Assembly: GCA_964479955.1 (NCBI GenBank)
Contig: CAYZNK010000002.1
Coordinates: forward strand, 156,955 to 220,954
DNA length: 64,000 bases
Reading direction: 5' to 3'
DNA from: an uncultured Candidatus Saccharibacteria bacterium
GTDB lineage: Bacteria; Patescibacteriota; Minisyncoccia; Minisyncoccales; Staskawiczbacteraceae
Shown: positions 11,668-49,846 of the stretch, piece after piece
Numbering within the stretch: position 1 is the stretch's first letter
Layout of the letters: each line of letters opens with the position of its first letter
The notes under the pieces: model-generated
Told to the model about the DNA's origin: nothing
The model's input: only the letters and a program-made list of their open reading frames with translations
The model's database searches: none
Made by a program: the position numbers and the translations under genes

Positions 11668-11680
11668 ATTGTGCGACAAA
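11668..11680 (+). repeat. ATTGTGCGAC-word copy (forward)
   Basis: ATTGTGCGACAAA, intergenic, 46 nt upstream of ATG 11726. Confidence 0.8.
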
Positions 11681-11725
11681 CATTACCTTTTAATTTTAAA
11701 ATAAAAGATTATTTAAAACATAATT

Positions 11726-12127
11726 ATGGAAATAATAAGTTTTGAAGATTTCAAAAAGGTTGAAATAAGAATAGGAAAAATTTTGTCAGCAGAAAAAGTT
11801 GAAGGCTCAGACAAGCTTTTAAAATTGGAGGTTGACTTTGGACTGCAAGAAACAGAAATCAAAACAATGGAAATGGCAGAAGAAAGGGGGACTGAAACCG
11901 CAAAAAAAGAGCTTATTCCCATAAAACGCCAGATTATCGCCGGAATAGCCCAGTTTTACACGCCAGAAGAGCTTATTGGCAAAGAGTGCCCATTTGCGTA
12001 TAATTTGGCTCCGCGAATACTTAAAGGCCTGGAATCTCAAGGAATGATTTTGTGCCCAAGCGGTAAAAACGGCCCGGTTTTATTGCATCCAGACAAAGAA
12101 GTCAGTCCGGGCAGCGAAGTAAAATAA
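11726..12127 (+). CDS. tRNA-binding domain protein (CsaA/EMAP-type OB fold)
   Basis: DFKKVEIRIGKILSAEKVEGSDKLLKLEVDFG ... IAQFYTPEELIGK ... GMILC. Confidence 0.75.
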   Translation: MEIISFEDFKKVEIRIGKILSAEKVEGSDKLLKLEVDFGLQETEIKTMEMAEERGTETAKKELIPIKRQIIAGIAQFYTPEELIGKECPFAYNLAPRILKGLESQGMILCPSGKNGPVLLHPDKEVSPGSEVK

Positions 12128-12146
12128 ATATTAAAAAAAACAAGAT

Positions 12147-12731
12147 ATGATTCCTGTTTTATTTGTACACGGAATATGGGGAAACGAAAAGCAGTACCAG
12201 CCTATCATAAAATTTTTAAAGAGCAAGGGATTTTCAAAATTCTACGAGTTTAAATATGAGAGCAGAATTGGAATCCATTCAATTAAAATAATCGCCAAGG
12301 AATTAGCCGAATATATTGAGCAAAATGTAAAAGAAGACAATATAAATATTGTTGCAATGAGTCAAGGAGGAATTATTGCCTTGGCTTATTTAAAATATTT
12401 TTTACCGCTCCCAAACGGAAGAACTATTCATATAAATAAATTATTTACTTTATGCAGTCCACATAAAGGAAGTCCGTTAGCTATGATTTTAAATTGGCCC
12501 GGAATAAAAGATTTGAGACCTGGCAGTGAACTATTAAAAGATTTGGAAATATTTGTAAAAGAAGGCAGGGTAAATATATATTCAATTTATACCCCGTTTG
12601 ACTTGATGGTTTTTCCGGGAATTAGAGCAAAACCCATATTTGGGAAAACAAAAATGGTTTTGGCCCCCACCCACATGCTTGCTTTCTATTGGCCATCTAC
12701 AAAAAATTTTATATATAAAAATATATTGTAA
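12147..12731 (+). CDS. alpha/beta hydrolase (lipase/esterase-like)
   Basis: The nucleophile elbow AMSQGG matches GxSxG. N-terminal VHGIWG oxyanion-type motif. Confidence 0.65.
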   Translation: MIPVLFVHGIWGNEKQYQPIIKFLKSKGFSKFYEFKYESRIGIHSIKIIAKELAEYIEQNVKEDNINIVAMSQGGIIALAYLKYFLPLPNGRTIHINKLFTLCSPHKGSPLAMILNWPGIKDLRPGSELLKDLEIFVKEGRVNIYSIYTPFDLMVFPGIRAKPIFGKTKMVLAPTHMLAFYWPSTKNFIYKNIL

Positions 12732-12742
12732 AAACAAGTTAA

Positions 12743-13948
12743 ATGTTATCCCAAGAAACAAACAAAATATATAGCATTTCGGAATTTGTTGCATTTTTAA
12801 ATGTTGGGTTAAAATCCTCAAAAGCTAAAATTGTAGGAGAAATTGGTGAAGCAAAACAAGGACCAACAGGCCATATGTATTTTACCTTGAAAGACGAAAA
12901 GGACGCTTCAATGTTAAACTGCATTATTTGGGCCTCAAAATACAGACTTTATGGCATAACCCTTGAACCTGGCAAAAAAATTGTGGCTTTTGGAAACCCG
13001 GAGATTTATGCGCCTTCAGGCAGGCTTTCTTTTATTGCAGACAGCATTGAACTTGCAGGAGAAGGAGATTTAAAAAAGCAATACGACGAACTAAAAGCCA
13101 AATTGGAAAAAGAAGGAATTTTTTCTCCTGAAAATAAACGATTCATACCCAAATATCCGCACAAAATTGGAGTTATTACTTCAAAACAGGGAGCGGTCAT
13201 ACATGACTTTTTAAACAATATAGGCAAATTTGGATTTGATATCAAAATGATTGATTCAAGGGTTGAGGGTCAGGAGGCTGTGGCGGATTTGCTTTCAGCA
13301 ATAAAAACTTTCAGAAAAAAAGATATTGATGTTTTGGTCATTATAAGGGGTGGGGGCTCAATGGAGTCTTTGATGTGCTTTAACAATGAGCTGCTTGTAA
13401 GGGAAATTGCGGGGTTTCCTTGCCCCGTTATTGCGGGAATAGGCCACGACAAAGACGTTCCGCTGTCCGCGATGGCTTCTGATATAATGGTTTCAACGCC
13501 AACAGCGGCCGCAAACCTGATTAATGAATCATGGAGCCAGGCTCTATTGCTCTTAGAAAGGCTTGAAAGAAAAATTTTGGCAAGCTACGGCATAATTTTT
13601 GAAAAATTTAACTTTATTGAAAATAAATTTAAGGTTTCCTTGCAGAATTTTAAAAACAATATTATAAACCTAAAAAAAGAGTTGGAAAAACATCCGGAAT
13701 CTTTTTTTACGAAGTTTTCTTTATTGTGCGACAAATTCAGGACTTTTTTGGCAAATTCTGAAAAAATAATAAAATTAAACAGCCCGGAAAGAAATTTAAG
13801 GCTTGGCTACATAATCGCTAATATCAATGGTAGAGTGTTAAAAAGTGTAAAGAATATAAAAGTTGGAGATGTTGTAAACTTAAAACTTACAGACGGCCAA
13901 ATAAAGTCTGAAATAAAATCAATAAACGAGAAAAACAATCCCCAATAA
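12743..13948 (+). CDS. xseA: exodeoxyribonuclease VII large subunit
   Basis: N-terminal OB fold (ISEFVAFLN...GEIGEAKQGPTGHMYFTLKD), IGVITSKQGAVIHDF, IIRGGGS. Confidence 0.9.
   Translation: MLSQETNKIYSISEFVAFLNVGLKSSKAKIVGEIGEAKQGPTGHMYFTLKDEKDASMLNCIIWASKYRLYGITLEPGKKIVAFGNPEIYAPSGRLSFIADSIELAGEGDLKKQYDELKAKLEKEGIFSPENKRFIPKYPHKIGVITSKQGAVIHDFLNNIGKFGFDIKMIDSRVEGQEAVADLLSAIKTFRKKDIDVLVIIRGGGSMESLMCFNNELLVREIAGFPCPVIAGIGHDKDVPLSAMASDIMVSTPTAAANLINESWSQALLLLERLERKILASYGIIFEKFNFIENKFKVSLQNFKNNIINLKKELEKHPESFFTKFSLLCDKFRTFLANSEKIIKLNSPERNLRLGYIIANINGRVLKSVKNIKVGDVVNLKLTDGQIKSEIKSINEKNNPQ
13720..13737 (+). repeat. 18-mer TTTATTGTGCGACAAATT (forward) inside xseA
   Basis: Identical to 16120-16137 and 33695-33712. 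Read here as ..SLLCDKF.. Confidence 0.9.
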
Positions 13949-14056: not shown

Positions 14057-14075
14057 TTTGGGATTTCAACAATTT

Positions 14076-14276: not shown

Positions 14277-14311
14277 TGTAATTAAGACTTGAGGGGGGTG
14301 GAAAAAATGTA

Positions 14312-14416: not shown

Positions 14417-14433
14417 TTTTAAAATTTATAACA

Positions 14434-15601: not shown

Positions 15602-15674
15602 GGGGTTGTAGCTCACACCGGGAGAGCGTCCGCCAACTGGCGGAAGGCTGCGGGTTCAAATCCTGCCAACTCCA
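15602..15674 (+). tRNA. atypical tRNA-like gene (Ala-type acceptor with G3:U70 and A73; 6-nt anticodon loop)
   Basis: GGGGTTG/CAACTCC acceptor, D-arm GCTC-ACACCGGGA-GAGC, T-arm GCGGG-TTCAAAT-CCTGC. The anticodon stem TCCGC/GCGGA encloses only CAACTG, with no U33, so no anticodon can be assigned. Confidence 0.6.
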
Positions 15675-15788
15675 CTTTGCACATTATCAACTTAATACAT
15701 CCAAAATCAACTTCTTTTCTGAAACTCCAAAAACCCAATAATAAACTAGGCTTAGGCAACCACCCAAGTCTTTTTTATTGGTTTTTAG

Positions 15789-15815
15789 TTAGCACTCTTG
15801 ACAAGGGAGTGATAA
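15789..15815 (+). promoter_or_regulatory. CIRCE operator (HrcA binding site)
   Basis: TTAGCACTC-N9-GAGTGATAA against the consensus TTAGCACTC-N9-GAGTGCTAA. Overlaps the promoter -35. Confidence 0.85.
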
Positions 15816-15826
15816 TTTAATAAGAT
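15798..15826 (+). promoter_or_regulatory. sigma70-type promoter of the hrcA-grpE operon
   Basis: TTGACA (15798-15803, inside the CIRCE spacer), 17-nt spacer, TAAGAT (15821-15826). Confidence 0.6.
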
Positions 15827-15849
15827 GACTTATCAGTAAATTAATCAGA

Positions 15850-16266
15850 GTGATAATGATAACATTGCGCCAAGAAAAAATTTTAAATTTTCTGGTAAAG
15901 GAATATATAGCCACTTTGGAGCCGGTTGGCTCTTTGGCTTTAAAAAAAGTATGCGACCTTGATGTTTCCGGGGCAACAATAAGAAATGATTTACAGGAAC
16001 TTGCAAGGCAGGGATATATAGAACAGCCCTATACTTCGGCAGGCAGGGTGCCAACAAAAAAAGCATACAGGCATTTTGCAGAGTGCATAAGAAAACAGAA
16101 TGAAATAGAATTTGAAATGTTTATTGTGCGACAAATTAGGCATGCCAGAAGTGAAATGGAACAAGAAATGAAAATGATGGAAAAACTAATGGATACACTT
16201 GAAAACGACAATATTTTTGAAATATTAACAATTTTAGAATCATGGCACAAAAAAATAATGAATTAG
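15850..16266 (+). CDS. hrcA: HrcA-like heat-shock repressor, short form (winged-HTH domain only)
   Basis: LRQEKILNFLVKEYIATLEPVGSLALKK...SGATIRNDLQELARQGYIEQPYTSAGRVPT. Only 138 aa. Lies downstream of CIRCE and overlaps grpE by 25 nt. Confidence 0.75.
   Translation: MIMITLRQEKILNFLVKEYIATLEPVGSLALKKVCDLDVSGATIRNDLQELARQGYIEQPYTSAGRVPTKKAYRHFAECIRKQNEIEFEMFIVRQIRHARSEMEQEMKMMEKLMDTLENDNIFEILTILESWHKKIMN
16120..16137 (+). repeat. 18-mer TTTATTGTGCGACAAATT (forward) inside hrcA
   Basis: Identical to 13720-13737 but read in another frame (..MFIVRQI..). Confidence 0.9.
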
Positions 16267-20720: not shown

Positions 20721-20721
20721 C

Positions 20722-23275: not shown

Positions 23276-23306
23276 CCTGCCTGTCCGGCAGGCAGGTGCG
23301 ACAAAT
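23276..23306 (+). repeat. CCTGCCTG/CAGGCAGG hairpin plus partial ATTGTGCGAC-word copy
   Basis: CCTGCCTG-tccgg-CAGGCAGG is the same hairpin family as 20823-20841. It is followed by GTGCGACAAAT (23296-23306, forward). Confidence 0.6.
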
Positions 23307-28995: not shown

Positions 28996-29490
28996 TTATA
29001 ATGTTTTTGCAAGAGTCTGAGCCATCTGGAACCATTTGGGTTGCCTGGGCCTGGATTTATACTTTGCAGACGACTTATGAATTTCTATTAAGGTGTTTAA
29101 ATCGTTTTTCTTCCATGTTGCAAGATATTTTCCTTTATTTTTCTGGATTACCTCAACCCCTTTTGCCCAAAGCTCAAAATCTTTTTTCTTTTTTTCCGAC
29201 AAAGGATTCTTCCTAAAAAACGGAACTACTGTCTGGGCTATGTCTCCGATTTTCTGCACAGAAAACCTTGCCTGGTCTTTTGAAATTGTAATCTGTCCGC
29301 ATCCAATTTCTTTTTGTATTTTTTCCAAAATTTTAAGACTTTCTTTTTGGCAGGTAACCACAAACTGGGCTTTCCATCTGTAATATGTGGGAGCGTTTGT
29401 CCTTTCGTGCCTTGTGTCTTTGCGAAACTGCAAATCAAAGCATCCGTCATTGTTTACAATTTTTGAAACGCTAAAAATATCCTTTGCCAT
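28996..29490 (-). CDS. free-standing LAGLIDADG-family homing endonuclease (single-motif type)
   Basis: IVNNDGCFDLQF is a degenerate LAGLIDADG motif. KILEKIQKEIGCGQITI...FSVQKIGDIAQTVVPFFRKNPL..KKKDFELW is the typical family scaffold. Confidence 0.7.
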   Translation of the reverse strand: MAKDIFSVSKIVNNDGCFDLQFRKDTRHERTNAPTYYRWKAQFVVTCQKESLKILEKIQKEIGCGQITISKDQARFSVQKIGDIAQTVVPFFRKNPLSEKKKKDFELWAKGVEVIQKNKGKYLATWKKNDLNTLIEIHKSSAKYKSRPRQPKWFQMAQTLAKTL

Positions 29491-29706
29491 ATATTATTAA
29501 ATTAAGTTAGGCCTTAAATTTGATATCTATATTAATTATACCAAATATATTATTATGCGACAATACGCAGGTTTAAATATATATAGTTTTTTGCTAAAAT
29601 ATATGCAATACAATGGTTATAGACATTGAGCTCACTTTAAACAGGGGGCAGAAAATATAAAATCGCTTCTATTAAAATAGGAACCTTATTTATATAAATC
29701 TTAATT

Positions 29707-30114
29707 ATGAATCGGATTCAAATATTTTTTTCACAAATATTCGGAGTAGGGAACGTAATTTTTAAAGATAGATATCTAGAACTTTTTAGAATTTTTATTA
29801 TAGAAGAAATTCCTAGTATTATACAAATTATTACTTTTTTTGCTTTTTTGAACTTTTTAACTAAAAGTTTGGTCTTTAATCTTATATTTTGTATATTGAT
29901 TATTATTTTGCTTTATTTGTATTTGTTAGGGAGAATGCATAGATTTTTAGCGGGTCAGATAGAAAACTCAACTTCAGAATTTAACTGTAGTATTTGTGGA
30001 AAAATGGACTTAAAACAAACACTACATAAATGGAACTATTTCGCATTCTTTTTCTCGGTTGTTATTTCGATTATTATGACAATATTCGCAGTTTTTTACA
30101 GCTGTAAAATATAG
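29707..30114 (+). CDS. hypothetical multi-pass membrane protein
   Basis: 135 aa, three hydrophobic segments, CSICGK motif. Confidence 0.55.
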   Translation: MNRIQIFFSQIFGVGNVIFKDRYLELFRIFIIEEIPSIIQIITFFAFLNFLTKSLVFNLIFCILIIILLYLYLLGRMHRFLAGQIENSTSEFNCSICGKMDLKQTLHKWNYFAFFFSVVISIIMTIFAVFYSCKI

Positions 30115-30309
30115 TTTTATAGGATGTCTGGCATTTTATTGTGCAATATAAAATTGTAAATAAGTATAAAATAAGTTAATATAAATTAACAATTAATAAT
30201 AAGCCTAAACTCGTGGATTTTTGCAGGCATGTCGCCATAATGAGAGCCGAGTTCGTTCGGTTTTTTTGGTTAGATTGAAATTTTAGTGGAAAAAGAGTAA
30301 ATTAAAGCA

Positions 30310-31125: not shown

Positions 31126-31129
31126 TAAT

Positions 31130-31651: not shown

Positions 31652-31672
31652 AAATTAATTAAGAAATAAAAA

Positions 31673-32278
31673 ATGGATTTCTTACGACGGGAAATTTTAA
31701 GGTATAAAGTTACAAACTTAAATTTCTTAATAAGGCCCGTTTTTAAAAATTTTGGGGTAATTACAAAAGAGAAAAATCCTAAGGAATATTTTATTTTATC
31801 TGCGCTAAATAAAATATATTCTATAAATGTTTCTTTAGAAAATATTATTTTTACCAACGACATTTTTTTATCAATATATATTTACCGATACGTATATGAG
31901 CTTTATATAAAAATATTTTATATTTTCTCTGGGAAATCTGAGGTTGAAATTCTAGGTAGAATTAATGATTTCTTTGTAGATGGACCCTCCACAGCTAAAA
32001 TTCATCATTGCGAAAAATATTTGGATAAGAGATTCGTACCATCTAAGGTTACCCGAGATCACGCAAAAAAATATAAAATAATGTCTAAATTTGTTCACCC
32101 AAATTTAGCTAGCCTCGCCCTTCATTACCAGGATCGTAAACAGCAATTTGAGTTTCTTATCCCAAATATAAATTTATCAGTCTGGCTTCTTGTTGATCTA
32201 ATAAGATTTTTTCTTAAAAGCGGGCTAATTATAGGAGTTGATGATAGCAAACTATCTGATATACAAAAGATTAATTAA
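31673..32278 (+). CDS. hypothetical protein
   Basis: 201-aa AT-rich ORF, last gene of the R-M islet. Confidence 0.55.
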   Translation: MDFLRREILRYKVTNLNFLIRPVFKNFGVITKEKNPKEYFILSALNKIYSINVSLENIIFTNDIFLSIYIYRYVYELYIKIFYIFSGKSEVEILGRINDFFVDGPSTAKIHHCEKYLDKRFVPSKVTRDHAKKYKIMSKFVHPNLASLALHYQDRKQQFEFLIPNINLSVWLLVDLIRFFLKSGLIIGVDDSKLSDIQKIN

Positions 32279-32349
32279 AAGAATGTCGCAAAAGATACGT
32301 TTACTAAAGCCGGCTTTCAATTAAGTCGGTTTTTTGGTAGAATTAAAGT

Positions 32350-32892
32350 ATGAAAAATGATTATACAAAAAAAGATGGTTTTGCAAAAATGATTTTGCTA
32401 TACATTGCGATAGTTGTGGCTATCTTTGGACTGACTTATTATTTTTTCTTGCTAAGAAATCCGCAAGCCCAAGATAACCAAAGTTCTATAAACATTGGCG
32501 TTGTTCCACAGGATAAAATTTTAAATTTAAGCAATCAGGGACTAACAAGCATTCCTTCATACGTTTTTAACCGAGCGGATTTAGAAGAATTGAATGTTTC
32601 TCATAATTCCTTAACTGGCGCCATTCAGTCTCAGATAGGAAAATTGAAAAATTTAAAAATCATTGACGCCAGCTACAATCAAATGACCGGCGTGCCAGCA
32701 GAGGTTGGGCAACTGCAAAAATTGCAGATTCTTGATTTATCATACAACCAACTGACGGGTTTGCCTTATGAGTTAGGCAACTTAAGCAACCTAAAAACCT
32801 TGAATTTATCAGGAAATTCATATTCCCAACAAGACCTTGACTATATTCGCGATAAACTGCCGCCAACAGTAAATATTATCGTAAATCAATAA
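32350..32892 (+). CDS. membrane-anchored leucine-rich-repeat protein
   Basis: N-terminal TM helix. Five LxxLxLxxNxLtG repeats (LEELNVSHNSLTG, LKIIDASYNQMTG, ...). Confidence 0.8.
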   Translation: MKNDYTKKDGFAKMILLYIAIVVAIFGLTYYFFLLRNPQAQDNQSSINIGVVPQDKILNLSNQGLTSIPSYVFNRADLEELNVSHNSLTGAIQSQIGKLKNLKIIDASYNQMTGVPAEVGQLQKLQILDLSYNQLTGLPYELGNLSNLKTLNLSGNSYSQQDLDYIRDKLPPTVNIIVNQ

Positions 32893-32914
32893 ATTGGTTT
32901 TAATGACCCTAGCG

Positions 32915-32939
32915 ACCGCCTTTCAATTGAGGCGGTTTT
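32915..32939 (+). terminator. intrinsic terminator
   Basis: ACCGCC-tttcaattga-GGCGGT followed by TTT. Confidence 0.7.
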
Positions 32940-32973
32940 AGTTTGCTAAATTTTATTATTTTAAAAGGAAAAT

Positions 32974-33001
32974 TAAAAGCCATCAGCTAAATGCCGTGGC
33001 T
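32974..33001 (-). terminator. intrinsic terminator of the 129-aa gene
   Basis: Minus strand: AGCCA-(13 nt)-TGGCT followed by TTTTAATTTT. Confidence 0.5.
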
Positions 33002-33027
33002 ATAATGTTTATGAAAGGAGAAGGGGA

Positions 33028-33417
33028 TTATCCTAAATAAACTTCGTCGTCACCCTTTGCTAACCGTTCTATGCGGTCTAGAATGTCAGAGGTAACTCCA
33101 TAAAGCCGCAAGTCTGTTATACAGTCTAATATCTCTTTTCTATGTTCATCGCGCGCCTTTTCTAGCGCCAAGCTGGCCAATCTTTCAGCTTTCCGTAGCT
33201 TAACTAATTCCTTGCAGTTCTTTTCAAATTCTCGTCTAGCTTTTGTTGCCTCATCTAGTACGTCTCTAGCTTTTTTCATTTCTGAAGATGCTTTACCCCT
33301 GACCCCCACAAGGACTTCCTTCAAATCCTTTTTACTTGGCGTGTACGGCTTACGAGTTTTTGGCAATCTCGATTGATTTTTTTTCAAAAAACCGGTTAGA
33401 TCATTGCGATTAGGCAT
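33028..33417 (-). CDS. hypothetical coiled-coil protein (129 aa, GC-richer)
   Basis: AAGGAG lies 8 nt upstream of the ATG. Basic N-terminus, then helices KARDVLDEATKARREFEKNCKELVKLRKAERLASLALEKARDEH. Confidence 0.65.
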   Translation of the reverse strand: MPNRNDLTGFLKKNQSRLPKTRKPYTPSKKDLKEVLVGVRGKASSEMKKARDVLDEATKARREFEKNCKELVKLRKAERLASLALEKARDEHRKEILDCITDLRLYGVTSDILDRIERLAKGDDEVYLG

Positions 33418-33470
33418 GCTTGTATCTCCTTTTATTAAACCTTATTGATGTGCCTTGTTGTAATAGAATA

Positions 33471-33498
33471 TAATAACATAACAAAAAAACAGATTCAA
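33471..33498 (-). promoter_or_regulatory. sigma70-type promoter of the 129-aa gene
   Basis: Minus strand TTGAAT (33498-33493), 16-nt spacer, TATTAT (33476-33471). Confidence 0.5.
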
Positions 33499-33501
33499 AC
33501 A

Positions 33502-33545
33502 TTTTGTCTCACCTGTCTCTGCCGGCAGATACAGGTGAGACAAAA
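33502..33545. promoter_or_regulatory. 44-bp near-perfect palindrome abutting the -35 (candidate operator)
   Basis: TTTTGTCTCACCTGTCTCTGCC|GGCAGATACAGGTGAGACAAAA with one mismatch. An A-run lies 3' in both orientations, so it is not a canonical terminator. Confidence 0.5.
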
Positions 33546-33694
33546 TATGGATTGAAATTTTGCCATAAAAGAGACGAATTTAAATAATAATTAAAATTAA
33601 TTAAGAAATAAAAATCTACAAAAAAATAAATTATTTTGTAGATTGTTTTAATGGCAAAAAATTTATTTAAATCCAAACAAAAACAAAGTTAATC

Positions 33695-33712
33695 TTTATT
33701 GTGCGACAAATT
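33695..33712 (+). repeat. 18-mer TTTATTGTGCGACAAATT (forward)
   Basis: Identical to the xseA and hrcA copies. Nt 33695-33711 are the exact reverse complement of 35050-35066. Confidence 0.9.
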
Positions 33713-33721
33713 AATGGAAGG

Positions 33722-33754
33722 AAAATCGGGCGCCCCATGGGAAAACCCGATTTT
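33722..33754 (-). terminator. intrinsic terminator of the 385-aa gene
   Basis: AAAATCGGG-(15 nt)-CCCGATTTT, 28 nt downstream of the stop at 33782. Confidence 0.7.
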
Positions 33755-33781
33755 ATTGTTGTTTGGCCTAATGGTTTTTGG

Positions 33782-34939
33782 TTAAAACCTGATTGGGCGG
33801 TATCCCGACTGACTGCTAAAACGCACCACCCAGCGATTGTCGTAAGGCGCTACAATTAAAGTTGAGCGCAATTTGCTTGGGTTTGGCATACGAAGCAGCC
33901 AGCTTGTATCCACATACAGCCTTCCGTTATACTGGCGGAAGACACTGTAATTGGGCGGAGTAGACATCAGAACGCCGTCCTTTGTCCACGGTCTATCCTG
34001 AAAAACCTCGTAAAGAATTAGGGCCGGCTTGCTGTCATCATGCTGACATCTGGCATATTGCACAAACGAAAGCCAGTGAATCCACTCGCCAATTTTCTCG
34101 CCGTTGGCAAGAATAAATCCTACGGGGCTAGATTGGGGCTGTAAATCAGAAAGATAAAGCGCCCGCGACGGGCCGCCAGGTTTTCCATAGTGCAGAAACT
34201 GTGCCACTTGGGAATCTTGCATAAACCCGCTATCAATAAAGTTCTCCTTGTAGCCGGCTTTGCCAGCGTCTCCAAGAAAAGTAACAAACCGCTTCATCTC
34301 ACCAACGGCATTAATACTTGGAAAGAGAATTACCTGGCCGTTCGCCTGTATATAGTCAAAGTTGATTTGAGATTCCACATCGTTTGGCAATTTGGTAATC
34401 CTATTACCAGCCGCGCAGGAAATTGCAATTTCCCTGGTGATATAATTAATAATCACCGCGAAAATTGGCACCCCGCGCCGCACACAACTGATTGCTGAAG
34501 TTGCCCCGGTTATGCTTGCTGGCGCGCCAAACTTGGCCTCCCATTTGCTGATAACTTCGGCACTTCCAAAAATATCATTGATTACCGTATCCCGCGGAAA
34601 ATCGCTAAGAAACTCTTTGAGCTGGTTAGAACGGTCGGTGGGGTCAGAAATAAAAACCGTACGAAATGTCTGTGGGTCATTAGGACGAAACGTATCGCCG
34701 TCAACATTGACTCCGCGCGAACCAACCTCTTCAGTAATCACAATGGCGCCCGCGTCATACCTGGCAAGCTCCTCGCAAATAATAATCTCCGGCCCTGCGT
34801 CCATACCAAGAGTGTCTTTTTTTCCATAAGCGGCGATGGGTCTAAGCGCATCGTCAACTGTGGAATGCAACAAATCGCTGTAAGCAGTTAATGCCGCGGA
34901 AATTGCCGCATTCAGATGTGATTTTTCAACGCCTTGCAT
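33782..34939 (-). CDS. divergent IMPase/FBPase-fold (sugar-phosphatase-like) protein, GC-rich
   Basis: Start moved to ATG 34939 (AAGGAG 8 nt upstream): MQGVEKSHLN... EE motif in AIVITEEVG; DP.D motif in VFISDPTDRSNQL. The C-terminal half is unassigned. Confidence 0.75.
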   Translation of the reverse strand: MQGVEKSHLNAAISAALTAYSDLLHSTVDDALRPIAAYGKKDTLGMDAGPEIIICEELARYDAGAIVITEEVGSRGVNVDGDTFRPNDPQTFRTVFISDPTDRSNQLKEFLSDFPRDTVINDIFGSAEVISKWEAKFGAPASITGATSAISCVRRGVPIFAVIINYITREIAISCAAGNRITKLPNDVESQINFDYIQANGQVILFPSINAVGEMKRFVTFLGDAGKAGYKENFIDSGFMQDSQVAQFLHYGKPGGPSRALYLSDLQPQSSPVGFILANGEKIGEWIHWLSFVQYARCQHDDSKPALILYEVFQDRPWTKDGVLMSTPPNYSVFRQYNGRLYVDTSWLLRMPNPSKLRSTLIVAPYDNRWVVRFSSQSGYRPIRF

Positions 34940-34998
34940 AATCAGTACTCCTTTTTCCAATTGATAACAGGCCAAAAAAAATTTAAAGGTACACTTTG

Positions 34999-35027
34999 AA
35001 ACTATCACAAACCCAACTATTTGTAAA
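34999..35027 (-). promoter_or_regulatory. possible promoter of the 385-aa gene
   Basis: Minus strand TTTACA (35027-35022), 17-nt spacer, TAGTTT (35004-34999). Confidence 0.35.
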
Positions 35028-35049
35028 TATTTTTTCCATCTCATTTTAT

Positions 35050-35066
35050 ATTTGTCGCACAATAAA
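35050..35066 (-). repeat. ATTGTGCGAC-word copy (reverse), inverted partner of 33695-33711
   Basis: The plus strand reads ATTTGTCGCACAATAAA. Confidence 0.9.
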
Positions 35067-35111
35067 ACAGACGGGGCACCCGTGGGGCAGGGGAGAGAGA
35101 ACAAGCAATTC

Positions 35112-35128
35112 ATTGTGCGACAGATTGG
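35112..35128 (+). repeat. ATTGTGCGACAGATTGG (forward), inverted partner of 37347-37363
   Basis: A 17-nt exact inverted pair. The last 4 nt overlap the -35 TTGGAA of sigma promoter P1. Confidence 0.9.
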
Positions 35129-35153
35129 AAAAACCCCAAAATAGAACTATAAT
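35125..35153 (+). promoter_or_regulatory. sigma70-type promoter P1 of the sigma-factor gene
   Basis: TTGGAA, 17-nt spacer, TATAAT (35148-35153). Confidence 0.55.
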
Positions 35154-35154
35154 A

Positions 35155-35183
35155 TTGACAAAATTGGGATTTATTTATAAAAT
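35155..35183 (+). promoter_or_regulatory. sigma70-type promoter P2 of the sigma-factor gene
   Basis: TTGACA (35155-35160), 17-nt spacer, TAAAAT (35178-35183). Confidence 0.55.
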
Positions 35184-35214
35184 AAGTTAAGCTCTTTTCA
35201 AGAAAGGATTCCTT

Positions 35215-35760
35215 ATGCAATCGTGCCAGTTAGATGAAATTGGAGAAATTGTTGAAAGAGTACAGGCTGGAGACAATGACTCTTTTGGTCTTCTGTACTC
35301 AATGTTTAGGGGTAGCATCATGGCTTGCTTGATAAACATGGGAATCAAATACCATGAAGCCGAAGACCTTTGTAATGATATTTTTCTCCAGGCACACAGA
35401 AAAATAACCGATCTAAGAGAACCTAAAAAGTTCTTTGCATGGTTGAAGGTTATAGCTAAACGCATGGGCATAAACTTCCTTATCCGAAGAAAATGTCTAC
35501 CATCTCTGGAAGAATTATTTGAGCCAAATGAAATAAGCGACCCCAGTGGCAGACTGGTTAAGCTTGAAGATGTGCATTTTGCCAGAAAATTATTGGAAGA
35601 TTTGCAGCCCATGGATTCGCAATGCCTTAGACTGTTTTACTTTGATGGACTTTCGCTATTGGAAATAGCGGAGATACTTGGGATTCCATCGGGAACAGTG
35701 AAGCGGCGCCTGCACGTTGCCAGAAAGCGGGCAAAAAAACAAAAGAAATTTGCGTTTTAG
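35215..35760 (+). CDS. ECF-type (group 4) sigma-70 family RNA polymerase sigma factor
   Basis: Region 2: DLCNDIFLQAHRKI...FFAWLKVIAKRMGINFLIRR. Region 4: LRLFYFDGLSLLEIAEILGIPSGTVKRRLHVARKRA. Confidence 0.8.
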   Translation: MQSCQLDEIGEIVERVQAGDNDSFGLLYSMFRGSIMACLINMGIKYHEAEDLCNDIFLQAHRKITDLREPKKFFAWLKVIAKRMGINFLIRRKCLPSLEELFEPNEISDPSGRLVKLEDVHFARKLLEDLQPMDSQCLRLFYFDGLSLLEIAEILGIPSGTVKRRLHVARKRAKKQKKFAF

Positions 35761-35764
35761 CAGA

Positions 35765-35787
35765 GCCACCACTTGCGTGGCTTTTTT
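35765..35787 (+). terminator. intrinsic terminator
   Basis: GCCAC-cacttgc-GTGGC followed by TTTTTT, running into the next motif copy. Confidence 0.7.
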
Positions 35788-35798
35788 ATTGTGCGACA
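35784..35798 (+). repeat. TTTTATTGTGCGACA (forward), inverted partner of 37418-37432
   Basis: A 15-nt exact inverted pair enclosing the recombinase and the 119-aa gene. Confidence 0.85.
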
Positions 35799-35818
35799 TT
35801 TTAATAAGTTGAGGTAAA

Positions 35819-36832
35819 CTATTTTTTGTCCGGGTCGCTGTGATATTGGTGGTGAATGTCTCGGAGGCGTTTGTTAGTTACATGAGTATAGATTTGAGTT
35901 GTTGCAATATTTGAGTGGCCCAAAAATTCTTGGATACTGCGCAGGTCAACGCCCTGATTTAGTAAATCTGTTGCGTAGGAATGTCGCAAGGTGTGTGGAG
36001 TGGTAAAAACCGGAATTCCGGATAACAACGCATACTTTTTTACCATACGTTCTATGGAGCGCGGAGTGAGTCTGGCATCAACATTATCTTTCTTGTCACG
36101 AAAATTTATAAACAAGGCCTTGGTATTGGCGTTTGATATATCGTTTCTTATTTCTAAATATTTTTTTATGTGATCTAAGGCACGCTCTGAAAAATAAACA
36201 ACACGCGGTTTTCCGCCTTTTCCTATAACTCCAAGTTCTAAATCTTTTTTATCTTTTATGCTGTTGAACTGCTCAAGGTTTAAAGATGTTAACTCGGCGA
36301 TTCTAAGGCCGGTTGAAAAAAAAGACTCTAAAATAGCCCTGTCTCTTATAGAAATTGCGTCTTTTGGCTCAACAGAGGCTAAAAGCTTACCAATCTGCTC
36401 TAAACTAAGGAATTTCACGGATTTTTGGCTTTTATCTGCCTTTGGAAGCGATATTTTACCCGGAGGGGTAGACAATATGTCTTTTGCCACAAAGTAGCCT
36501 AAAAGGGCTCTCAGGGCTATAAGATAGTAGTTTTGGGTGGATTTTGATAATAATTTGCCTGTGGCTGGGCTTGGCTGACGAGATAAAAATAATCTATATT
36601 TCCAAATGTGATCTGAGGTCAGTTGGTGGGGGAGTAAAGAGCTTAAATTAGCTTTATTTTGCCAATAAAAAAACTTTTCTAAATATTTTTTATAATTCTC
36701 TTGCGTATTATCACGCAAACCTTTTTCAACTTCACAATAATCCAAAAAATCCTGCAGATGATCTTTGATTGGTTTTGTTGATTCTTGCATTTTGTTATAT
36801 GTATACTTCGGTTTACCTACATTTTGCGACAT
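35819..36832 (-). CDS. xerC: Xer-like tyrosine site-specific recombinase
   Basis: N-terminal SAM-like domain. Catalytic region GLRIAEL, HTLRHSYATDLLNQGVDLRSIQEFLGHSNIATTQIYTHV. Confidence 0.85.
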   Translation of the reverse strand: MSQNVGKPKYTYNKMQESTKPIKDHLQDFLDYCEVEKGLRDNTQENYKKYLEKFFYWQNKANLSSLLPHQLTSDHIWKYRLFLSRQPSPATGKLLSKSTQNYYLIALRALLGYFVAKDILSTPPGKISLPKADKSQKSVKFLSLEQIGKLLASVEPKDAISIRDRAILESFFSTGLRIAELTSLNLEQFNSIKDKKDLELGVIGKGGKPRVVYFSERALDHIKKYLEIRNDISNANTKALFINFRDKKDNVDARLTPRSIERMVKKYALLSGIPVFTTPHTLRHSYATDLLNQGVDLRSIQEFLGHSNIATTQIYTHVTNKRLRDIHHQYHSDPDKK

Positions 36833-36918
36833 TCTATATATTTATAATAAATCGCCTCCTAGAGGTGTGTCAATACTCAAAAGCATCAAACGACACGACT
36901 TAAAACGGTTTTTAAAAA

Positions 36919-37278
36919 TTAATTTGCCGGACAATTTTGAGGAGATCCGGGATTTACAATACTATTTTTGATTCCTGAAATATAATCCCCAACTTTTTCC
37001 AAAACATTTTCAGAAATTTCTTCTTTCTGAGTTTCAATGGCATCTTTTGCCATCTCTCCCCTCTTCTGCGACTCTTCCAGCAGGGTAGGATATGCTTTAT
37101 TAGAAACCCAGTTTATGCCATCTTCCCAACGGTCATATATGGCGGCTGAAACATTGGAAAACAAATTTTTGTCCTCTACGTTATTAAAATGGTCCTGCTG
37201 GCTCAAAAAAACTATGGCTGATATTACGACTATTGCGCCAATATAAATTATAAGCTTTTTTTTACTGTTTCCCTTCAT
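36919..37278 (-). CDS. membrane-anchored hypothetical protein (119 aa)
   Basis: N-terminal TM helix KLIIYIGAIVVISAIVFL. Confidence 0.6.
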   Translation of the reverse strand: MKGNSKKKLIIYIGAIVVISAIVFLSQQDHFNNVEDKNLFSNVSAAIYDRWEDGINWVSNKAYPTLLEESQKRGEMAKDAIETQKEEISENVLEKVGDYISGIKNSIVNPGSPQNCPAN

Positions 37279-37346
37279 TTTAATGAAAATATCTTAATCT
37301 TATAATATTATAAATATGTTTTATTTCCTCCCTCACCTGCCATAGC

Positions 37347-37377
37347 CCAATCTGTCGCACAATAGTCGCACAATAAA
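37347..37377 (-). repeat. two reverse ATTGTGCGAC-word copies (tandem GTCGCACAATA x2)
   Basis: CCAATCTGTCGCACAAT (37347-37363) is the inverted partner of 35112-35128. GTCGCACAATA is repeated at 37354-37364 and 37365-37375. Confidence 0.9.
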
Positions 37378-37417
37378 CAGACCTCCCAAAAAATAAAGAT
37401 AAATAAAATTGTAAAAT

Positions 37418-37432
37418 TGTCGCACAATAAAA
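37418..37432 (-). repeat. ATTGTGCGAC-word copy (reverse)
   Basis: The plus strand reads TGTCGCACAATAAAA. Confidence 0.85.
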
Positions 37433-37453: not shown

Positions 37454-38980
37454 TTATGTTATTGATAACATCTTAATTGCGTCTTTAATGCGTTTTAAGG
37501 TTTTCTCCTTGCCCAATATATCAGCTATTTCAAACGGGCTTGGAGAAAACTTTTTACCCGACAGGGCAACTCTTAGCGGCCATAGCAGATATCCCCTGTT
37601 ATTTTGCGGATAATTCTTTTCTGAATTAAATTTTTGTGAAGCTGACAATAATTCTTTTTCAACATTTTCATAATTCCATTTGTTTATATTAGACATAACG
37701 CTTTCCGACAAAGATAAAGAATCAAGCACTTCCCCATCTTTCATATTCTGCCATCGCAACATTTCCTTATCAAAAAATAATTCCTTAATAAAGAAAAAAT
37801 CTGACAACTCAGAAATATCGGAAAGTTTTTTCATTCTTGATTTTGAAACTTCAATAATTTTTTGAAGATGCAAATCAGTCATACTCTCCCCTGCCCCGTC
37901 TTTGTAGTTGCCATTTTCTTCTTTGATAAGTTTTTTATCAACAAGATAAGGAATACATAGCTCTGTTAATTTTTCTATTGATTTTTCCCTTATATACACG
38001 CCGTTAATAAAATCCAGCCTTTGTAAATTGAAAACAGCACCTGATTTCTGCACTTTTTCAATTGAAAATTCTTTTTCTAACTGTGACAAAGAAAATATTT
38101 CTTTTTCTGTCCCAGGATTCCACCCCAGCAAAACCATAAAATTTATCATGGCTTCTGGAAGATATCCTTGGTTTTTATATTCACTTACAGATACTGCCCC
38201 AAATCTTTTGCTCATTTTTGACCTGTCTGGCGCCAGTATCAAAGGCAAGTGGCCGTATTCAGGCCTATCAAAACCAAGCGCATCTTGAATTAAAATCTGT
38301 TTCGGGGTATTGGCAATATGGTCTTCTCCTCTTATTACATGGCTTATTTTCATTTCGAAATCATCAACTACAACCGCAAAATTATATAAAGGAGTCTTTA
38401 CGTCTTTTGCTATAACAATATCTCCAATAAGGCCTGCGTCAAACTCAACATTTCCTCTGATTAAATCTTTAAACTTAATTTTTTTATTTTCAACTCTAAA
38501 TCTTATAACTGATGGTATTTTATCTGCAATATTTTTTTCTATTTCCTGCTTGGAAAGACTTGCGCATTTTCCGTCATATTTTGGAGCTAATCCCCTGCTC
38601 ATTTGGTCTTGGCGCTTTTGTTCCAATTCGTCCTGAGAGCAAAAACAATAATACGCCTCATTTTCTTTTAAAAGTTTTTCTAAATATTTTTTATATGAAT
38701 CCAATCTCTGAGTTTGTTTGTACGGCCCAAAATCTCCATCAATGTCAGGTCCTTCGTCCCACTCAATCCCCAACCACTTTAATCCGTCAATTATATCCTG
38801 TGTCCATTTAATGTCAGACCTCTCTAAATCAGTATCTTCTATTCTTAACACAAAAGAACCTGCGTTTTTCTTTGCGAAAAGATAATTAAAAAGCGCGCTT
38901 CTTGCTGTTCCAATATGCAGGGCCCCTGTTGGCGAAGGCGCAATTCTTACTCTTATTTTTTTAAAATCATTGTTTTTCAT
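37454..38980 (-). CDS. gltX: glutamate--tRNA ligase
   Basis: RVRIAPSPTGALHIGTARSALFNY (HIGH motif) and KMSKR. Confidence 0.95.
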   Translation of the reverse strand: MKNNDFKKIRVRIAPSPTGALHIGTARSALFNYLFAKKNAGSFVLRIEDTDLERSDIKWTQDIIDGLKWLGIEWDEGPDIDGDFGPYKQTQRLDSYKKYLEKLLKENEAYYCFCSQDELEQKRQDQMSRGLAPKYDGKCASLSKQEIEKNIADKIPSVIRFRVENKKIKFKDLIRGNVEFDAGLIGDIVIAKDVKTPLYNFAVVVDDFEMKISHVIRGEDHIANTPKQILIQDALGFDRPEYGHLPLILAPDRSKMSKRFGAVSVSEYKNQGYLPEAMINFMVLLGWNPGTEKEIFSLSQLEKEFSIEKVQKSGAVFNLQRLDFINGVYIREKSIEKLTELCIPYLVDKKLIKEENGNYKDGAGESMTDLHLQKIIEVSKSRMKKLSDISELSDFFFIKELFFDKEMLRWQNMKDGEVLDSLSLSESVMSNINKWNYENVEKELLSASQKFNSEKNYPQNNRGYLLWPLRVALSGKKFSPSPFEIADILGKEKTLKRIKDAIKMLSIT

Positions 38981-47190: not shown

Positions 47191-47201
47191 TTTGCCTTAT
47201 T

Positions 47202-48614
47202 TTATTTCTTAGGTTCTTTTTTGGTTTCTATTTTTATATGAAGTTCTTTAAGCTGCTTTTTATCAATTTCTGAAGGAGAATCCATCATTAAATCCCTGCC
47301 ATCTCCTGTTTTTGGAAAAGCAATTATTTCTCTTATGTTTGGTTCGTTTCTCAATATTGCCAAAAGCCTTTCTAATCCCCATGCGATTCCTCCGTGTGGA
47401 GGCGCACCAAATTTAAAAGCCTCAAGCATGTGCCCGAAACCCTGCCCGATTTGCTCCTCTTTATATCCCATTATTTCAAAAACTTTCTTTAATAATTCCG
47501 GCTTGTGATTTCTTACGCTTCCTCCGCCAATTTCAAATCCATTAAGGACAACATCATATTGAGTTGTTAAAATTTTATCTATATTTTTCTTCGCCATTAG
47601 ATCTTCTGAAAATTCCTTTTTAGCCGCCGAAAAAGGATTGTGAGTAAATGTCCATTTTTTATCATCTGTCTTTTCAAAAAAAGGAAAATCGATTACCCAA
47701 CAGAAAGCCAATAAGTTTGAATCTGTTTTATCTTTTCTTATGTCGGGCCTGTCTGTTTTATATTTTTTTATTGCCTCCTGGTAAGAAATTCTTGGAAAAG
47801 GAATCTCTTGTATTCTCTTTTCCGGAAATAAATTCTGGACAATGGAAATTAAAAGCCGTTCGTTCAACTCAATTACATCTTCTTCTTCAACAAAGCTCAT
47901 TTCCATATCCAGTTGAGTAAATTCGGGCTGTCTATCCCCTCTTGGGTCCTCATCCCTCAAGCATTTTGCTATTTGAAAATATTTTTCAAGGCCTGCTACC
48001 ATCAAAAGCTGTTTGTACTGCTGGGGAGATTGAGGAAGTGCATAAAATTTTCCGACCTCTGTTCTTGCAGGGACAATATAGTCTCTGGCTCCTTCCGGAG
48101 TTGATTTTGTCAAAATAGGAGTTTCAATTTCAGTAAAACCCTCCCTGTCCAAAAAATTCCGTATAAACTGGTTCACTTTATGGCGGATAACAAGATTATT
48201 TTTCAGCCTTTCCCTTCTCAAGTCCAGATACCTGTATTTCATTCTTATTTCTTCGTTTATTTCGTAGCCAGGCTCCTCAATTGAAAAAGGAAGTGTTTCT
48301 GACTCTGATAAAACCTCCAGCAATTCAACAGACATTTCAATTTGGCCCGTTTCAATCTTTGGATTTACCATGTTGTCTGGCCTTTTTAAAATTTGGCCCT
48401 CAACAGAAATAACCCATTCTGGCCTTAACATTTCAGCTTTTTGGTAGGCCTCCTTATTGGACGGAATAAAAACCAACTGCAAAATTCCGCTTTTATCCCT
48501 AAGGTCAATAAATAAAATTTTGCCATGAGCCCTTCTCACATTCACCCACCCTGAAATTTTTACTTTTTCTCCGATATGTTTTACTGTTTCTGAAATTAAA
48601 AACCTGTGTTGCAT
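47202..48614 (-). CDS. aspS: aspartate--tRNA ligase (short form without GAD insertion)
   Basis: FIDLRDKSGILQLVF, QSPQQYKQLLM, FQIAKCLRDED, GGIAWGLERL. Confidence 0.95.
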   Translation of the reverse strand: MQHRFLISETVKHIGEKVKISGWVNVRRAHGKILFIDLRDKSGILQLVFIPSNKEAYQKAEMLRPEWVISVEGQILKRPDNMVNPKIETGQIEMSVELLEVLSESETLPFSIEEPGYEINEEIRMKYRYLDLRRERLKNNLVIRHKVNQFIRNFLDREGFTEIETPILTKSTPEGARDYIVPARTEVGKFYALPQSPQQYKQLLMVAGLEKYFQIAKCLRDEDPRGDRQPEFTQLDMEMSFVEEEDVIELNERLLISIVQNLFPEKRIQEIPFPRISYQEAIKKYKTDRPDIRKDKTDSNLLAFCWVIDFPFFEKTDDKKWTFTHNPFSAAKKEFSEDLMAKKNIDKILTTQYDVVLNGFEIGGGSVRNHKPELLKKVFEIMGYKEEQIGQGFGHMLEAFKFGAPPHGGIAWGLERLLAILRNEPNIREIIAFPKTGDGRDLMMDSPSEIDKKQLKELHIKIETKKEPKK

Positions 48615-48619
48615 ATTTT

Positions 48620-49846
48620 TTATTTCTTTTTTATTTTTCTAAATTTTCTATTTCCAACTTTTATAACCCTTCCATTGTATATATCTATATTAATCTTTTC
48701 TTTCCAATCATTAATTTTTTGCCAATCGCCTCCTTCTATTTCTATTGCAACACCCCCACCCTCAATTAATCTTTTTGCTTCACTTTTTGATGCGCTCAAT
48801 CCGCTGTCGCACAATAAATCCATGATTGGACAAAAATTCTGGGAAACTTCAAAAATTTCTATTTCTTCGGGCAATTCTCTTTTACTATGAATCTTATTAA
48901 ATTCTTCCTCCGCTTTTTTAGATTCTTTGCCTCCGTAAAAAATTTTTGTTATTTCATAGGCCAGCCTTGCTTTTGCATCTCTTGGATTAAATTCTGTGAT
49001 TATTTTTTCTATTTCCTCAAGCGCCAGATAAGTATTGTTCACAAATAAAATTTTAATCATTTCGTCAGGCTGGGCCATTATTTGCCCGTACATATCCTTT
49101 GGGCCCGCATCCAAAAAAACTCCCGTGCCCTTGCTTTTTGACATTAATTCTCCAGTTTTTGGATTTTCCATCAAAGTGACGGCAACAACAAATTTGTCTT
49201 TATTTTTTAACTTTTTCATCAGGTCCCTGCCTGCTAAAGCATTAAAAATCTGGTCTGTACCGCAAACTTCAACATCAACATCCATTGCCACAGAGTCATA
49301 TCCCTGCATCAAAGGATATAAAAATTCATTTAAATAAATCGGTTTTTGCTCTTTAATTCTTTTTTCAAACATATCCCTTTCAAGCAATCTTTGAACGGTA
49401 AAATTACCTGCCAAATTTATCAAATCTTCCATATTCAACCTTGAAAGCCAGCTGTTATTATACATTATTTTTGGCGGATTCTTAAAATCATTAAAATTCA
49501 TTAAGGGTTTTATTAACTGCTTCCATTTTTTAACATTTTCTGTGACCTCTTTTTTGGTCAGCTGTTTTCTGACAGAATTTTCTCCGGTTGGGTCCCCTAT
49601 TCTTGCTGTGAAATCCCCAAAAAGTATAATAACCTCGTGGCCTAATCTTCTGAATTTTTCCATCAGGATTATGTTTTTGGCATGGCTTAAATGCAGAGTT
49701 GGCGAAGTTGCGTCAAAACCTATATAAAACCTCATCTTCTTGCCGGAAGCCAATTTTCTCCTGAAGTCTTCTTTATCTGGTAAAATTTCCACTATGGTTC
49801 CTCTATTTAGCACCTGGTCAATTTTTTCTATATTTGTTTCTGGCAT
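48620..49846 (-). CDS. tyrS: tyrosine--tRNA ligase
   Basis: YIGFDATSPTLHLSH (HIGH-like), KMSKSKG, C-terminal S4-like domain. Confidence 0.95.
   Translation of the reverse strand: MPETNIEKIDQVLNRGTIVEILPDKEDFRRKLASGKKMRFYIGFDATSPTLHLSHAKNIILMEKFRRLGHEVIILFGDFTARIGDPTGENSVRKQLTKKEVTENVKKWKQLIKPLMNFNDFKNPPKIMYNNSWLSRLNMEDLINLAGNFTVQRLLERDMFEKRIKEQKPIYLNEFLYPLMQGYDSVAMDVDVEVCGTDQIFNALAGRDLMKKLKNKDKFVVAVTLMENPKTGELMSKSKGTGVFLDAGPKDMYGQIMAQPDEMIKILFVNNTYLALEEIEKIITEFNPRDAKARLAYEITKIFYGGKESKKAEEEFNKIHSKRELPEEIEIFEVSQNFCPIMDLLCDSGLSASKSEAKRLIEGGGVAIEIEGGDWQKINDWKEKINIDIYNGRVIKVGNRKFRKIKKK
48805..48819 (-). repeat. ATTGTGCGAC-word copy (reverse) inside tyrS
   Basis: The plus strand reads TGTCGCACAATAAAT, in the sense orientation of tyrS, where it encodes ..DLLCDS.. 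Confidence 0.85.

Follow-up and report, generated by a model that had tools for sequence, protein, structure and literature searches.

We found that a recurring, asymmetric DNA word is arranged in mirror image around the replication terminus of a Staskawiczbacteria-like patescibacterium, in a 64-kb stretch of contig CAYZNK010000002.1 (positions 156,955 to 220,954; hereafter the window). Almost every copy points at a 28-bp dif-like site that adjoins a gene for an Xer-type tyrosine recombinase (xer). Compared with its relatives, the window appears to hold a conserved, terminus-restricted, mirror-polar array of dif half-sites at a newly recognised xer-dif locus of Staskawiczbacteria-like Patescibacteria. 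That Xer binds these half-sites, and so marks or insulates the terminus, is what we infer from sequence, with a probability of about 0.5 for binding and function together. An earlier note on this DNA had described the word itself, and its claims are taken up below where the results bear on them; it had missed both the 28-bp site at the 5' end of the recombinase gene and the identity of the word to one arm of that site.

GC skew in the window was positive up to ~32 kb and negative from ~36 kb, with the sign change at 32-37 kb, and the genes lie on the plus strand on the left side and on the minus strand on the right side. This combination of skew flip and gene layout is the signature of a replication terminus, so the window spans one. 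The skew also changed sign at xer in 11 of the 11 relatives with long flanks. The recombinase gene occupies 35819..36790 on the minus strand; its reading frame can be followed to 36832, which gives a product of 323-337 aa, and relatives align from residue 15. Its product matched the XerD and XerC models with E values of ~1e-66, under their equivalog cut-offs, and the best solved homologues were XerA and XerD.

At the skew switch we found the 28-bp site (36805..36832, minus strand), which falls in the xer 5' leader or the first codons. It has an 11 + 6 + 11 architecture, ATGTCGCAAAA-TGTAGG-TAAACCGAAGT, and reads in full ATGTCGCAAAATGTAGGTAAACCGAAGT. The site is kept in relatives, where its form is ATGTCGCAAAA-TGTAGG-TAAAGCGACAT and the outer 7 bp of the two arms are perfect inverted repeats; conservation there is very high in the left arm, the right arm varies more, and the window has three changes in the right arm relative to this form. 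Because 36805-36832 lies at the skew switch, has this architecture and adjoins xer, it is a candidate dif, and we treat it as the putative dif of the lineage, with a presumed recombination role suggested by the neighbouring Xer-family gene. The proteobacterial/Firmicute dif consensus had no match within 3 mismatches anywhere in the window. Divergent dif-like sites that come nearer to the classical site were present in two relatives' loci, L133 and L158 (AGTTCGCATAA-TTATAG-TTAAGCGAAT), and in L207 (ATGTCGCGTAA-TGTATA-TTAAGTGCC), whose central TGTATA we take to be that of E. coli dif. A sigma-70-like xer promoter (36844..36873, minus strand; TTGACA at 36868-36873, TATTAT at 36844-36849, spacer of ~18 nt), also kept in relatives with a spacer of 17-18 nt, stands directly 5' of the dif-like site, and the site begins a few bases past the predicted transcription start (~7 nt after the -10 box). 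Because the putative dif is placed between the xer promoter and the coding region, Xer bound there would cover its own 5' leader, which suggests autoregulation of xer. The xer leaders of L136, L173 and L154 contain extra dif-arm copies that are arranged as perfect hairpins.

The word was first counted as an 18-mer, TTTATTGTGCGACAAATT, which is present exactly at 13720, 16120 and 33695 on the plus strand and has six further copies with 1-3 mismatches; 9 copies were observed against 0.24 expected from dinucleotide shuffles. The recurrence is thus real and above chance, as had been claimed. The 10-mer core TTGTGCGACA was enriched as well, although with 10 exact copies rather than the 11 counted earlier (11669+, 13724+, 16124+, 33699+, 35053-, 35113+, 35789+, 37353-, 37418- and 48805-) against ~0.1 expected. 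One-mismatch cores lie at 29553+ and 37364-, and a search with at most one mismatch gave 14 matches in the window against 2.36 expected. When a 14-mer was searched with at most two mismatches, 12 copies were obtained (11666+, 13721+, 16121+, 29550+, 33696+, 35052-, 35110+, 35786+, 37352-, 37363-, 37417- and 48804-). Alignment of 68 non-redundant copies from the window and its relatives gave the extended motif tTTTATTGTGCGACAAwt, which is self-contained and asymmetric with ~19 bp (15-19) conserved, and no further conserved position was seen within 60 nt on either side of the word in this alignment.

On the left side, the outermost copy, AATATTGTGCGACAAACA (11665..11682, plus strand), is ~25 kb from dif and points at it; it is intergenic, right after a terminator hairpin and 48 nt 5' of the next gene. 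Two exact 18-mers lie inside genes on the plus strand, one in xseA (13720..13737), 215 nt ahead of the stop codon and pointing at dif, and one in a short hrcA-like gene (16120..16137), while the third is intergenic and belongs to a variable island (33695..33712, plus strand). Three weaker copies that the earlier note had listed were all found. The partial copy GTGCGACAAAT at 23296..23306 (plus strand) has the outer arm alone and may reflect chance or decay. The degenerate copy near 29551 is the recurrent variant TTATTATGCGACAA, found at 29550 (29549..29566, plus strand), whose reverse complement TTGTCG forms the -35 box of the promoter of a LAGLIDADG-family gene. The one near 30136 is a decayed word that has lost its GAC, TTTATTGTGC^AAT (30135..30147, plus strand); L138 has an intact word at the matching position, 5' of the orthologous methylase gene. 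Closer to xer, the copy at 35049..35066 on the minus strand is the sole word in the window directed away from dif, and together with TTCATTGTGCGACAGATT (35109..35126, plus strand), which lies 93 nt 5' of an extracytoplasmic function (ECF) sigma gene, it makes up an inverted pair whose spacer is G-rich. The innermost left word (35785..35802, plus strand; reverse complement ATGTCGCACAA) stands ~20 nt past the xer stop codon, and a word just past the xer 3' end, anywhere from overlapping the stop codon to ~110 nt off, was found in most relatives.

On the right side, the innermost copies are two overlapping tandem words 11 nt apart (37349..37377, minus strand) that point at dif; a copy with 1 mismatch lies just 3' of gltX (37414..37431, minus strand), and the last one, inside tyrS (48801..48818, minus strand), faces dif from 12 kb on the right. 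As the earlier note had stated, the reading frame differs between the copies in xseA, the hrcA-like gene and tyrS. Inverted word pairs with a C/G-rich spacer of ~40-55 nt recur past the xer 3' end (35049-35126 in the window, L179:10496-10577, L180:11042-11120 and L209:10974-11040), and this composite element is the source of most wrongly oriented word copies.

In the window, 11/12 word copies point at dif. For comparison, ~60 Patescibacteria loci, mostly from Staskawiczbacteria, were examined and turned to the orientation of the window before polarity was counted. In the loci found by the 18-mer, words left of the recombinase were on the plus strand and words right of it on the minus strand, with few exceptions (window 35052, L125:634, L127:5821, L133:784, L138:1911 and L154:967). 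Since loci chosen by the word carry an ascertainment bias, 33 metagenome loci were fetched by an Xer protein query alone, and 29 of them were scanned. In these Xer-chosen loci the upstream copies were on the plus strand in 33 of 33 cases and the downstream copies on the minus strand in 41 of 45, which means that 74/78 were directed toward dif. Exact cores gave a similar picture in the 254 kb of loci L179-L209, with 48 toward xer-dif vs 4 away from it. De novo searches of the divergent L198, L203 and L205 gave no new polar word, just degenerate copies of the same core.

The word that stands between the LAGLIDADG gene and xer, both of which are on the minus strand, was still on the plus strand in L127, L136, L147, L155, L158, L169 and L173, so its orientation is set by the side of dif and not by transcription. 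The conclusion that orientation follows the side of the xer-dif locus rather than local transcription holds, with few separating cases. The word is thus polar relative to the chromosome, as the earlier note had supposed, and the polarity flips at xer-dif. Its further statement that copies outside the recombinase cluster are sense with the local genes was correct for the window but failed in relatives, where the word keeps its orientation between opposite-strand genes; of the two directions that it had proposed to compare with the strand bias, the bias follows the skew side and not local transcription, the separating cases being mostly one orthologous position.

The word and the strong arm of the putative dif are identical at 9-10 of 11 positions. 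Written from the inner to the outer end, the dif arms are TTTTGCGACAT and TAAAGCGACAT and the word is TTGTGCGACAA after TTTA, and the innermost left word (35789-35799) reaches 10/11. In the L198 clade the strong dif arm is itself TTGTGCGACC, i.e. the core of the word, and the recurrent word variant TTATGCGACAA has the classical inner TTATG. A second inverted arm at 4-9 bp from the words was not found, the best candidates having 3-4 mismatches in 11, which is chance level, and a full dif site at each word was ruled out on this ground. Likeness to a dif arm and the absence of a second arm together make the words isolated half-sites. Each is oriented as the far arm of dif, which gives the arrangement -> -> -> [<- dif ->] <- <- <-. 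An exact strong arm ATGTCGCAAAA also stands by itself in the variable island (32283..32293, plus strand). A terminator hairpin comes after it, and a second arm is absent at a distance of 6 bp; it may be the remnant of an Xer-mediated event.

The distribution of the word was analysed by searching 185,579 genomes, each standing for one species, for the exact 18-mer, which returned 57 stretches. By database label 31 of them were assigned to Patescibacteria, mostly Candidatus Staskawiczbacteria, and the remainder outside Patescibacteria was about the number expected by chance. Some of the related metagenome-assembled genomes (MAGs) are labelled Saccharibacteria, and these labels are doubtful since their GltX is 60-70% identical to that of Staskawiczbacteria. 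Among the 31 patescibacterial loci, 27 were syntenic with the 64-kb window, and most had an orthologue of the recombinase (58-90% identity). A word spread evenly over a genome of ~1 Mb would have only a ~6-8% chance of landing in this synteny block, and just 1-2 stretches were found per related genome, so the word is regional and not genome-wide. The outer 27 kb of the window had no copy.

Analysis of the 31 loci showed that 49/73 copies (67%) were intergenic, though ~90% of the DNA is coding, and that the in-gene copies comprised 19 sense vs 5 antisense. Several in-gene positions are shared between species: the hrcA copy occupies the same place in the window, L123, L139 and L152, a copy in a murD-like gene is shared by L133, L141 and L142, and seven relatives have a copy in gltX ~240 nt before the stop codon, where the window has three copies just past gltX instead. 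Word columns inside genes were 83-100% invariant vs 20-60% in the flanks, a difference to which ascertainment contributes, since the 18-mer had served to choose some of the loci. From this conservation we judge the earlier note right in its view that selection acts on the DNA word and not on the protein.

If the words are half-sites for Xer, each would consist of the strong Xer-binding dif arm plus ~4 conserved bases on the inner side, and about a dozen of them would lie isolated within ~25-30 kb on each side of the terminus. The adjacent Xer-type recombinase would bind them as monomers, and these would not recombine because the partner arm is missing. Bound Xer would then mark or insulate the terminus zone, in a manner resembling the dif-like, XerD-specific sites (XDS) of Bacillus subtilis. 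Because of the mirror arrangement, a machine coming from the origin side (SMC-ScpAB, replisome or FtsK) would in every case run into the inner face of the bound protein, and a machine leaving the dif zone would meet the outer face, the same one as on arriving at dif from outside, and such a geometry would suit a one-way gate. FtsK and SMC are not encoded in the 64-kb window.

The closest known parallel is the XDS themselves, which passages in PMC11840125, PMC10945525 and PMC11894783, citing Karaboja et al. 2021 (Mol Cell), place in the B. subtilis terminus and describe as sites where XerD unloads Smc-ScpAB independently of recombination. As with XDS, several dif-like copies are confined to the terminus region, each resembling one arm of the organism's own dif without a second arm, and Xer would bind them without recombining, in a role that would be positional rather than gene-regulatory. 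The two systems differ in that the present one belongs to a patescibacterium with xer directly beside dif, and is much denser (~12 copies within 40 kb), with several copies at conserved places within essential genes. The present array, for which Xer binding is proposed from sequence likeness, is strictly mirror-polar about dif, and our literature search found no description of such polarity for half-sites of this kind and no paper on dif or Xer in Patescibacteria. MatP-matS of the E. coli Ter macrodomain shares with the present array a short site limited to the terminus region, a density that rises toward dif and a presumed exclusion of SMC-type complexes, but matS is palindromic and without polarity, and its dedicated reader protein is unrelated to Xer.

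The locus itself has a layout that resembles those of XerS/difSL and XerH/difH, with xer beside a dif-like site. To our knowledge, no flanking half-site array has been described for XerS/difSL, XerH/difH or archaeal xerA systems. All these single-recombinase systems share with the present locus a dif-like site next to xer, with one good and one degenerate arm, at the skew switch. For archaeal xerA operons the upstream dif-like site is described in PMC11840125.

Several observations weigh against the words being Xer half-sites. Conservation is higher in the word than in the dif arms, and the conserved span of ~19 bp exceeds the typical 11-bp Xer arm. The word stays TTGTGCGACAA in the clades whose dif is AGTTCGCATAA...TTAAGCGAAT (L133, L158 and L154), so word and dif lack a clean co-variation; among the divergent clades L198 speaks for the link and L133, L158 and L154 speak against it. 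Transcription and replication direction are largely confounded, and the regional restriction was determined from exact 18-mer hits and loci of 8-21 kb rather than from a complete genome.

Almost nothing is known on how replication is completed and chromosomes are segregated in the Candidate Phyla Radiation (Patescibacteria), and the locus supplies a candidate dif, an adjoining, probably autoregulated Xer gene and a conserved, strictly polar half-site array for whose recognition the sequence suffices. Should Xer bind the sites, recombination-independent use of Xer of the XDS type would be ancient or recurrent and not a peculiarity of Bacillus, and the orientation of the bound recombinase is predicted to matter to the machine that it meets. 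For practical use, the word and the dif site together flag the terminus in fragmented MAGs of the clade. A bolder version, which we consider quite unlikely, is that the array traps machines that track along DNA (replisome, FtsK or SMC) in one direction, being passable inward to the dif zone and blocking outward. The barrier would be an Xer monomer on a single dif arm or a co-located domesticated LAGLIDADG protein. If true, a terminus trap like those of Tus and the replication terminator protein (RTP) would have been invented independently for a third time, in small-genome Patescibacteria and from dif/Xer itself.

Trapping of forks could also be the work of a protein other than Xer. The window encodes a free-standing, single-domain LAGLIDADG-family protein of 164 aa (28996..29490, minus strand), which is a rival candidate for the binder of the word, and with it the words would be a Ter-like polar fork trap in two opposed groups. 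We regard this as unlikely, though the layout agrees with it. As in Tus-Ter of E. coli and RTP-Ter of B. subtilis, the sites are asymmetric, occur within genes as well as between them and form two opposed groups about the terminus; those of the known systems have ~20-30 bp, and here ~19-bp sites, ~5-8 per side, flank the skew switch, in agreement with the arrangements of Ter sites that PMC13220808 reviews. In 22 relatives with that side visible the LAGLIDADG gene was found near xer, with one word or the variable island between the two genes. In 9/12 loci the word doubles as the -35 box of its promoter (TTGTCG, 17 nt, TAnnnT; the -10 box in the window is TATAAT), so that the protein might regulate its own gene through this word as Tus does at TerB and RTP at TerI; the overlap of one site with the promoter of a neighbouring gene for a DNA-binding protein recalls TerB and tus (PMC13220808). 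LAGLIDADG proteins recognise long, information-rich sites, and L207 has neither the gene nor the words.

Other properties of the LAGLIDADG protein do not fit such a trap. A single-domain member must homodimerise and should prefer an even-centred pseudo-palindrome, and the word is an odd-centred 4-3-4 element with asymmetric flanks. The closest solved structures are meganucleases of the I-OnuI family, and by eye the NNDG catalytic-type Asp is apparently kept, which means that an active nuclease would cut its own chromosome ~12 times. The co-occurrence of gene and words is suggestive in L202 vs L207 but contradicted by L198, L200, L203 and L205, which have polar words and no LAGLIDADG gene in view. 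No Tus or RTP family match was found among the ~35 window proteins scanned. The array spans tens of kb instead of 10-43% of the chromosome, and its sites are related to dif, whereas a fork trap read by another protein leaves the identity of 9-10/11 positions between word and dif arm as a coincidence.

An improbable explanation is that the words are scars or attachment sites of Xer recombination, either junctions of elements or cassettes that Xer integrated next to dif in the manner of integrative mobile elements exploiting Xer (IMEX) or pdif modules, or ends of invertible segments. The segment between the LAGLIDADG gene and xer invites this thought. It is a variable island of 6.3 kb (29500-35800 in the window) that is missing in most relatives and has other genes in L138, L159, L170, L175, L148 and L128. 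In the window the island contains an N6/N4 DNA methylase (30310-31125), a PD-(D/E)XK protein with a weak match (31130-31651), a leucine-rich repeat (LRR) protein (32350-32892), a GC-rich (~45-50%) ORF of 389 aa with no Pfam or NCBIfam match (33782-34951) and the ECF sigma gene, which has no obvious anti-sigma partner (35215-35760). Words in direct orientation stand between gene blocks, the isolated exact strong arm of dif lies inside the island, and the inverted word pairs with their ~40-55 nt spacer recur at the xer 3' end. However, the copies in hrcA, gltX, the murD-like gene, xseA and tyrS lie up to 25 kb off at positions kept between species, so they are not cassette junctions. Integration does not yield a mirror orientation across dif, a second arm at 6-8 bp is missing from every word, and the relative orientation of xer and gltX was identical in every locus, which gives no sign of inversion. 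Some word copies may still be scars, which does not extend to the conserved in-gene copies or the mirror polarity.

The chances are slimmer still that the word is a transcription signal, be it an operator, for a GntR-like regulator or another one, or an element of promoters used by the ECF sigma factor, through which a regulon is controlled. The 67% of copies that fall in intergenic DNA, which makes up ~10% of the sequence, would agree with this, and so would the many copies that lie in sense orientation 20-150 nt 5' of a start codon; one copy is 5' of the ECF sigma gene, one copy is a -35 box, and the core fits TnGT-N3-ACnA. It was this pattern that had led to the proposal of a GntR/FadR operator. 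The proposal fails in that just the 4-3-4 core fits and the ~19-bp motif is asymmetric and polar, and no GntR-type regulator was found among the scanned genes around the cluster. Around the 68 non-redundant copies we found no -35/-10 partner at fixed spacing, and the single copy that also serves as a -35 box is the one 5' of the LAGLIDADG gene, so that a promoter reading was rejected. Moreover, the genes next to the words are functionally unrelated and linked just by their proximity to the terminus, the plus orientation is kept between two minus-strand genes, and the ECF sigma gene belongs to an island that is specific to the window and missing from word-bearing relatives.

The earlier note had proposed a polar or uptake word that serves the whole genome, such as a DNA uptake sequence, Chi or FtsK-orienting polar sequences (KOPS). 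The over-representation of the word, its several reading frames and its leading-strand bias would agree with this. The proposal is largely refuted and has scarcely a chance left, because the 1-2 exact 18-mer stretches per related genome are nearly all syntenic with the terminus window, whose outer 27 kb have none, because the conserved 15-19 bp far exceed KOPS or Chi, and because a 14-mer gave just single chance hits in viral contigs. These hits in IMG/VR were also the ground on which a viral origin of the word was rejected. DNA uptake sequences have hundreds to thousands of copies genome-wide, against the 1-2 stretches found here, and with 27/31 loci syntenic an uptake or Chi-like role was given up. 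The comparison with KOPS fared better in part: a terminus-related role was a fair guess, and the genome-wide distribution that went with it was wrong on the same count of syntenic loci. Like KOPS and SRS, which orient FtsK and SpoIIIE, the word lies on the strand read toward dif and its polarity inverts exactly at dif. KOPS are 8-mers that the gamma domain of FtsK reads and that occur along entire replichores, unlike the word, which has 15-19 bp, is regional and resembles an Xer arm.

A separate 14-mer, GGGGCAGGGGAGAG, occurs at 35084-35097 (plus strand) and 37884-37897 (minus strand), mirrored about dif and pointing at it, with 0 expected; it includes GGGCAGGG, a fit to the KOPS consensus of E. 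coli, GGGNAGGG. G-rich spacers of a related kind, GGCAGGTGAGGGGAG, lie between the inverted word pairs in L179 and L180 and also at 37330 (minus strand). We rejected GGGNAGGG as a KOPS-like signal, since its 30:4 ratio toward dif is matched by a comparable skew of all G-rich oligomers (GGGGG 182:34, AGGGGA 151:9). In the 254 kb of L179-L209, AGGGGA was found 151 times on the strand read toward dif vs 9 on the other, and it may be a Shine-Dalgarno-like element of co-oriented genes.

A gene for a 119-aa protein (36919..37278, minus strand) separates xer from the right-hand words. The protein has an N-terminal hydrophobic stretch that was read by eye as a membrane helix; it is poorly conserved (26-51% identity among relatives) and has no family match. 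The HrcA-like gene that holds a word copy (15785-16266) is unusually short, with 138 aa that make up the winged-helix domain alone. Nearby, a tRNA-like gene (15602-15675) scored 50 bits against the Rfam tRNA model and was returned by ARAGORN as 'tRNA-???', with the anticodon not assigned. Just 3' of it we read by eye an inverted repeat, TTAGCACTC...GAGTGATAA, that resembles the controlling inverted repeat of chaperone expression (CIRCE). The terminus region is flanked on the left by a gene for an AddA/PcrA-like helicase-nuclease with UvrD and PD-(D/E)XK domains (7597-10536) and on the right by one for an 817-aa protein like a type IV secretion coupling protein or HerA (57561-60014).

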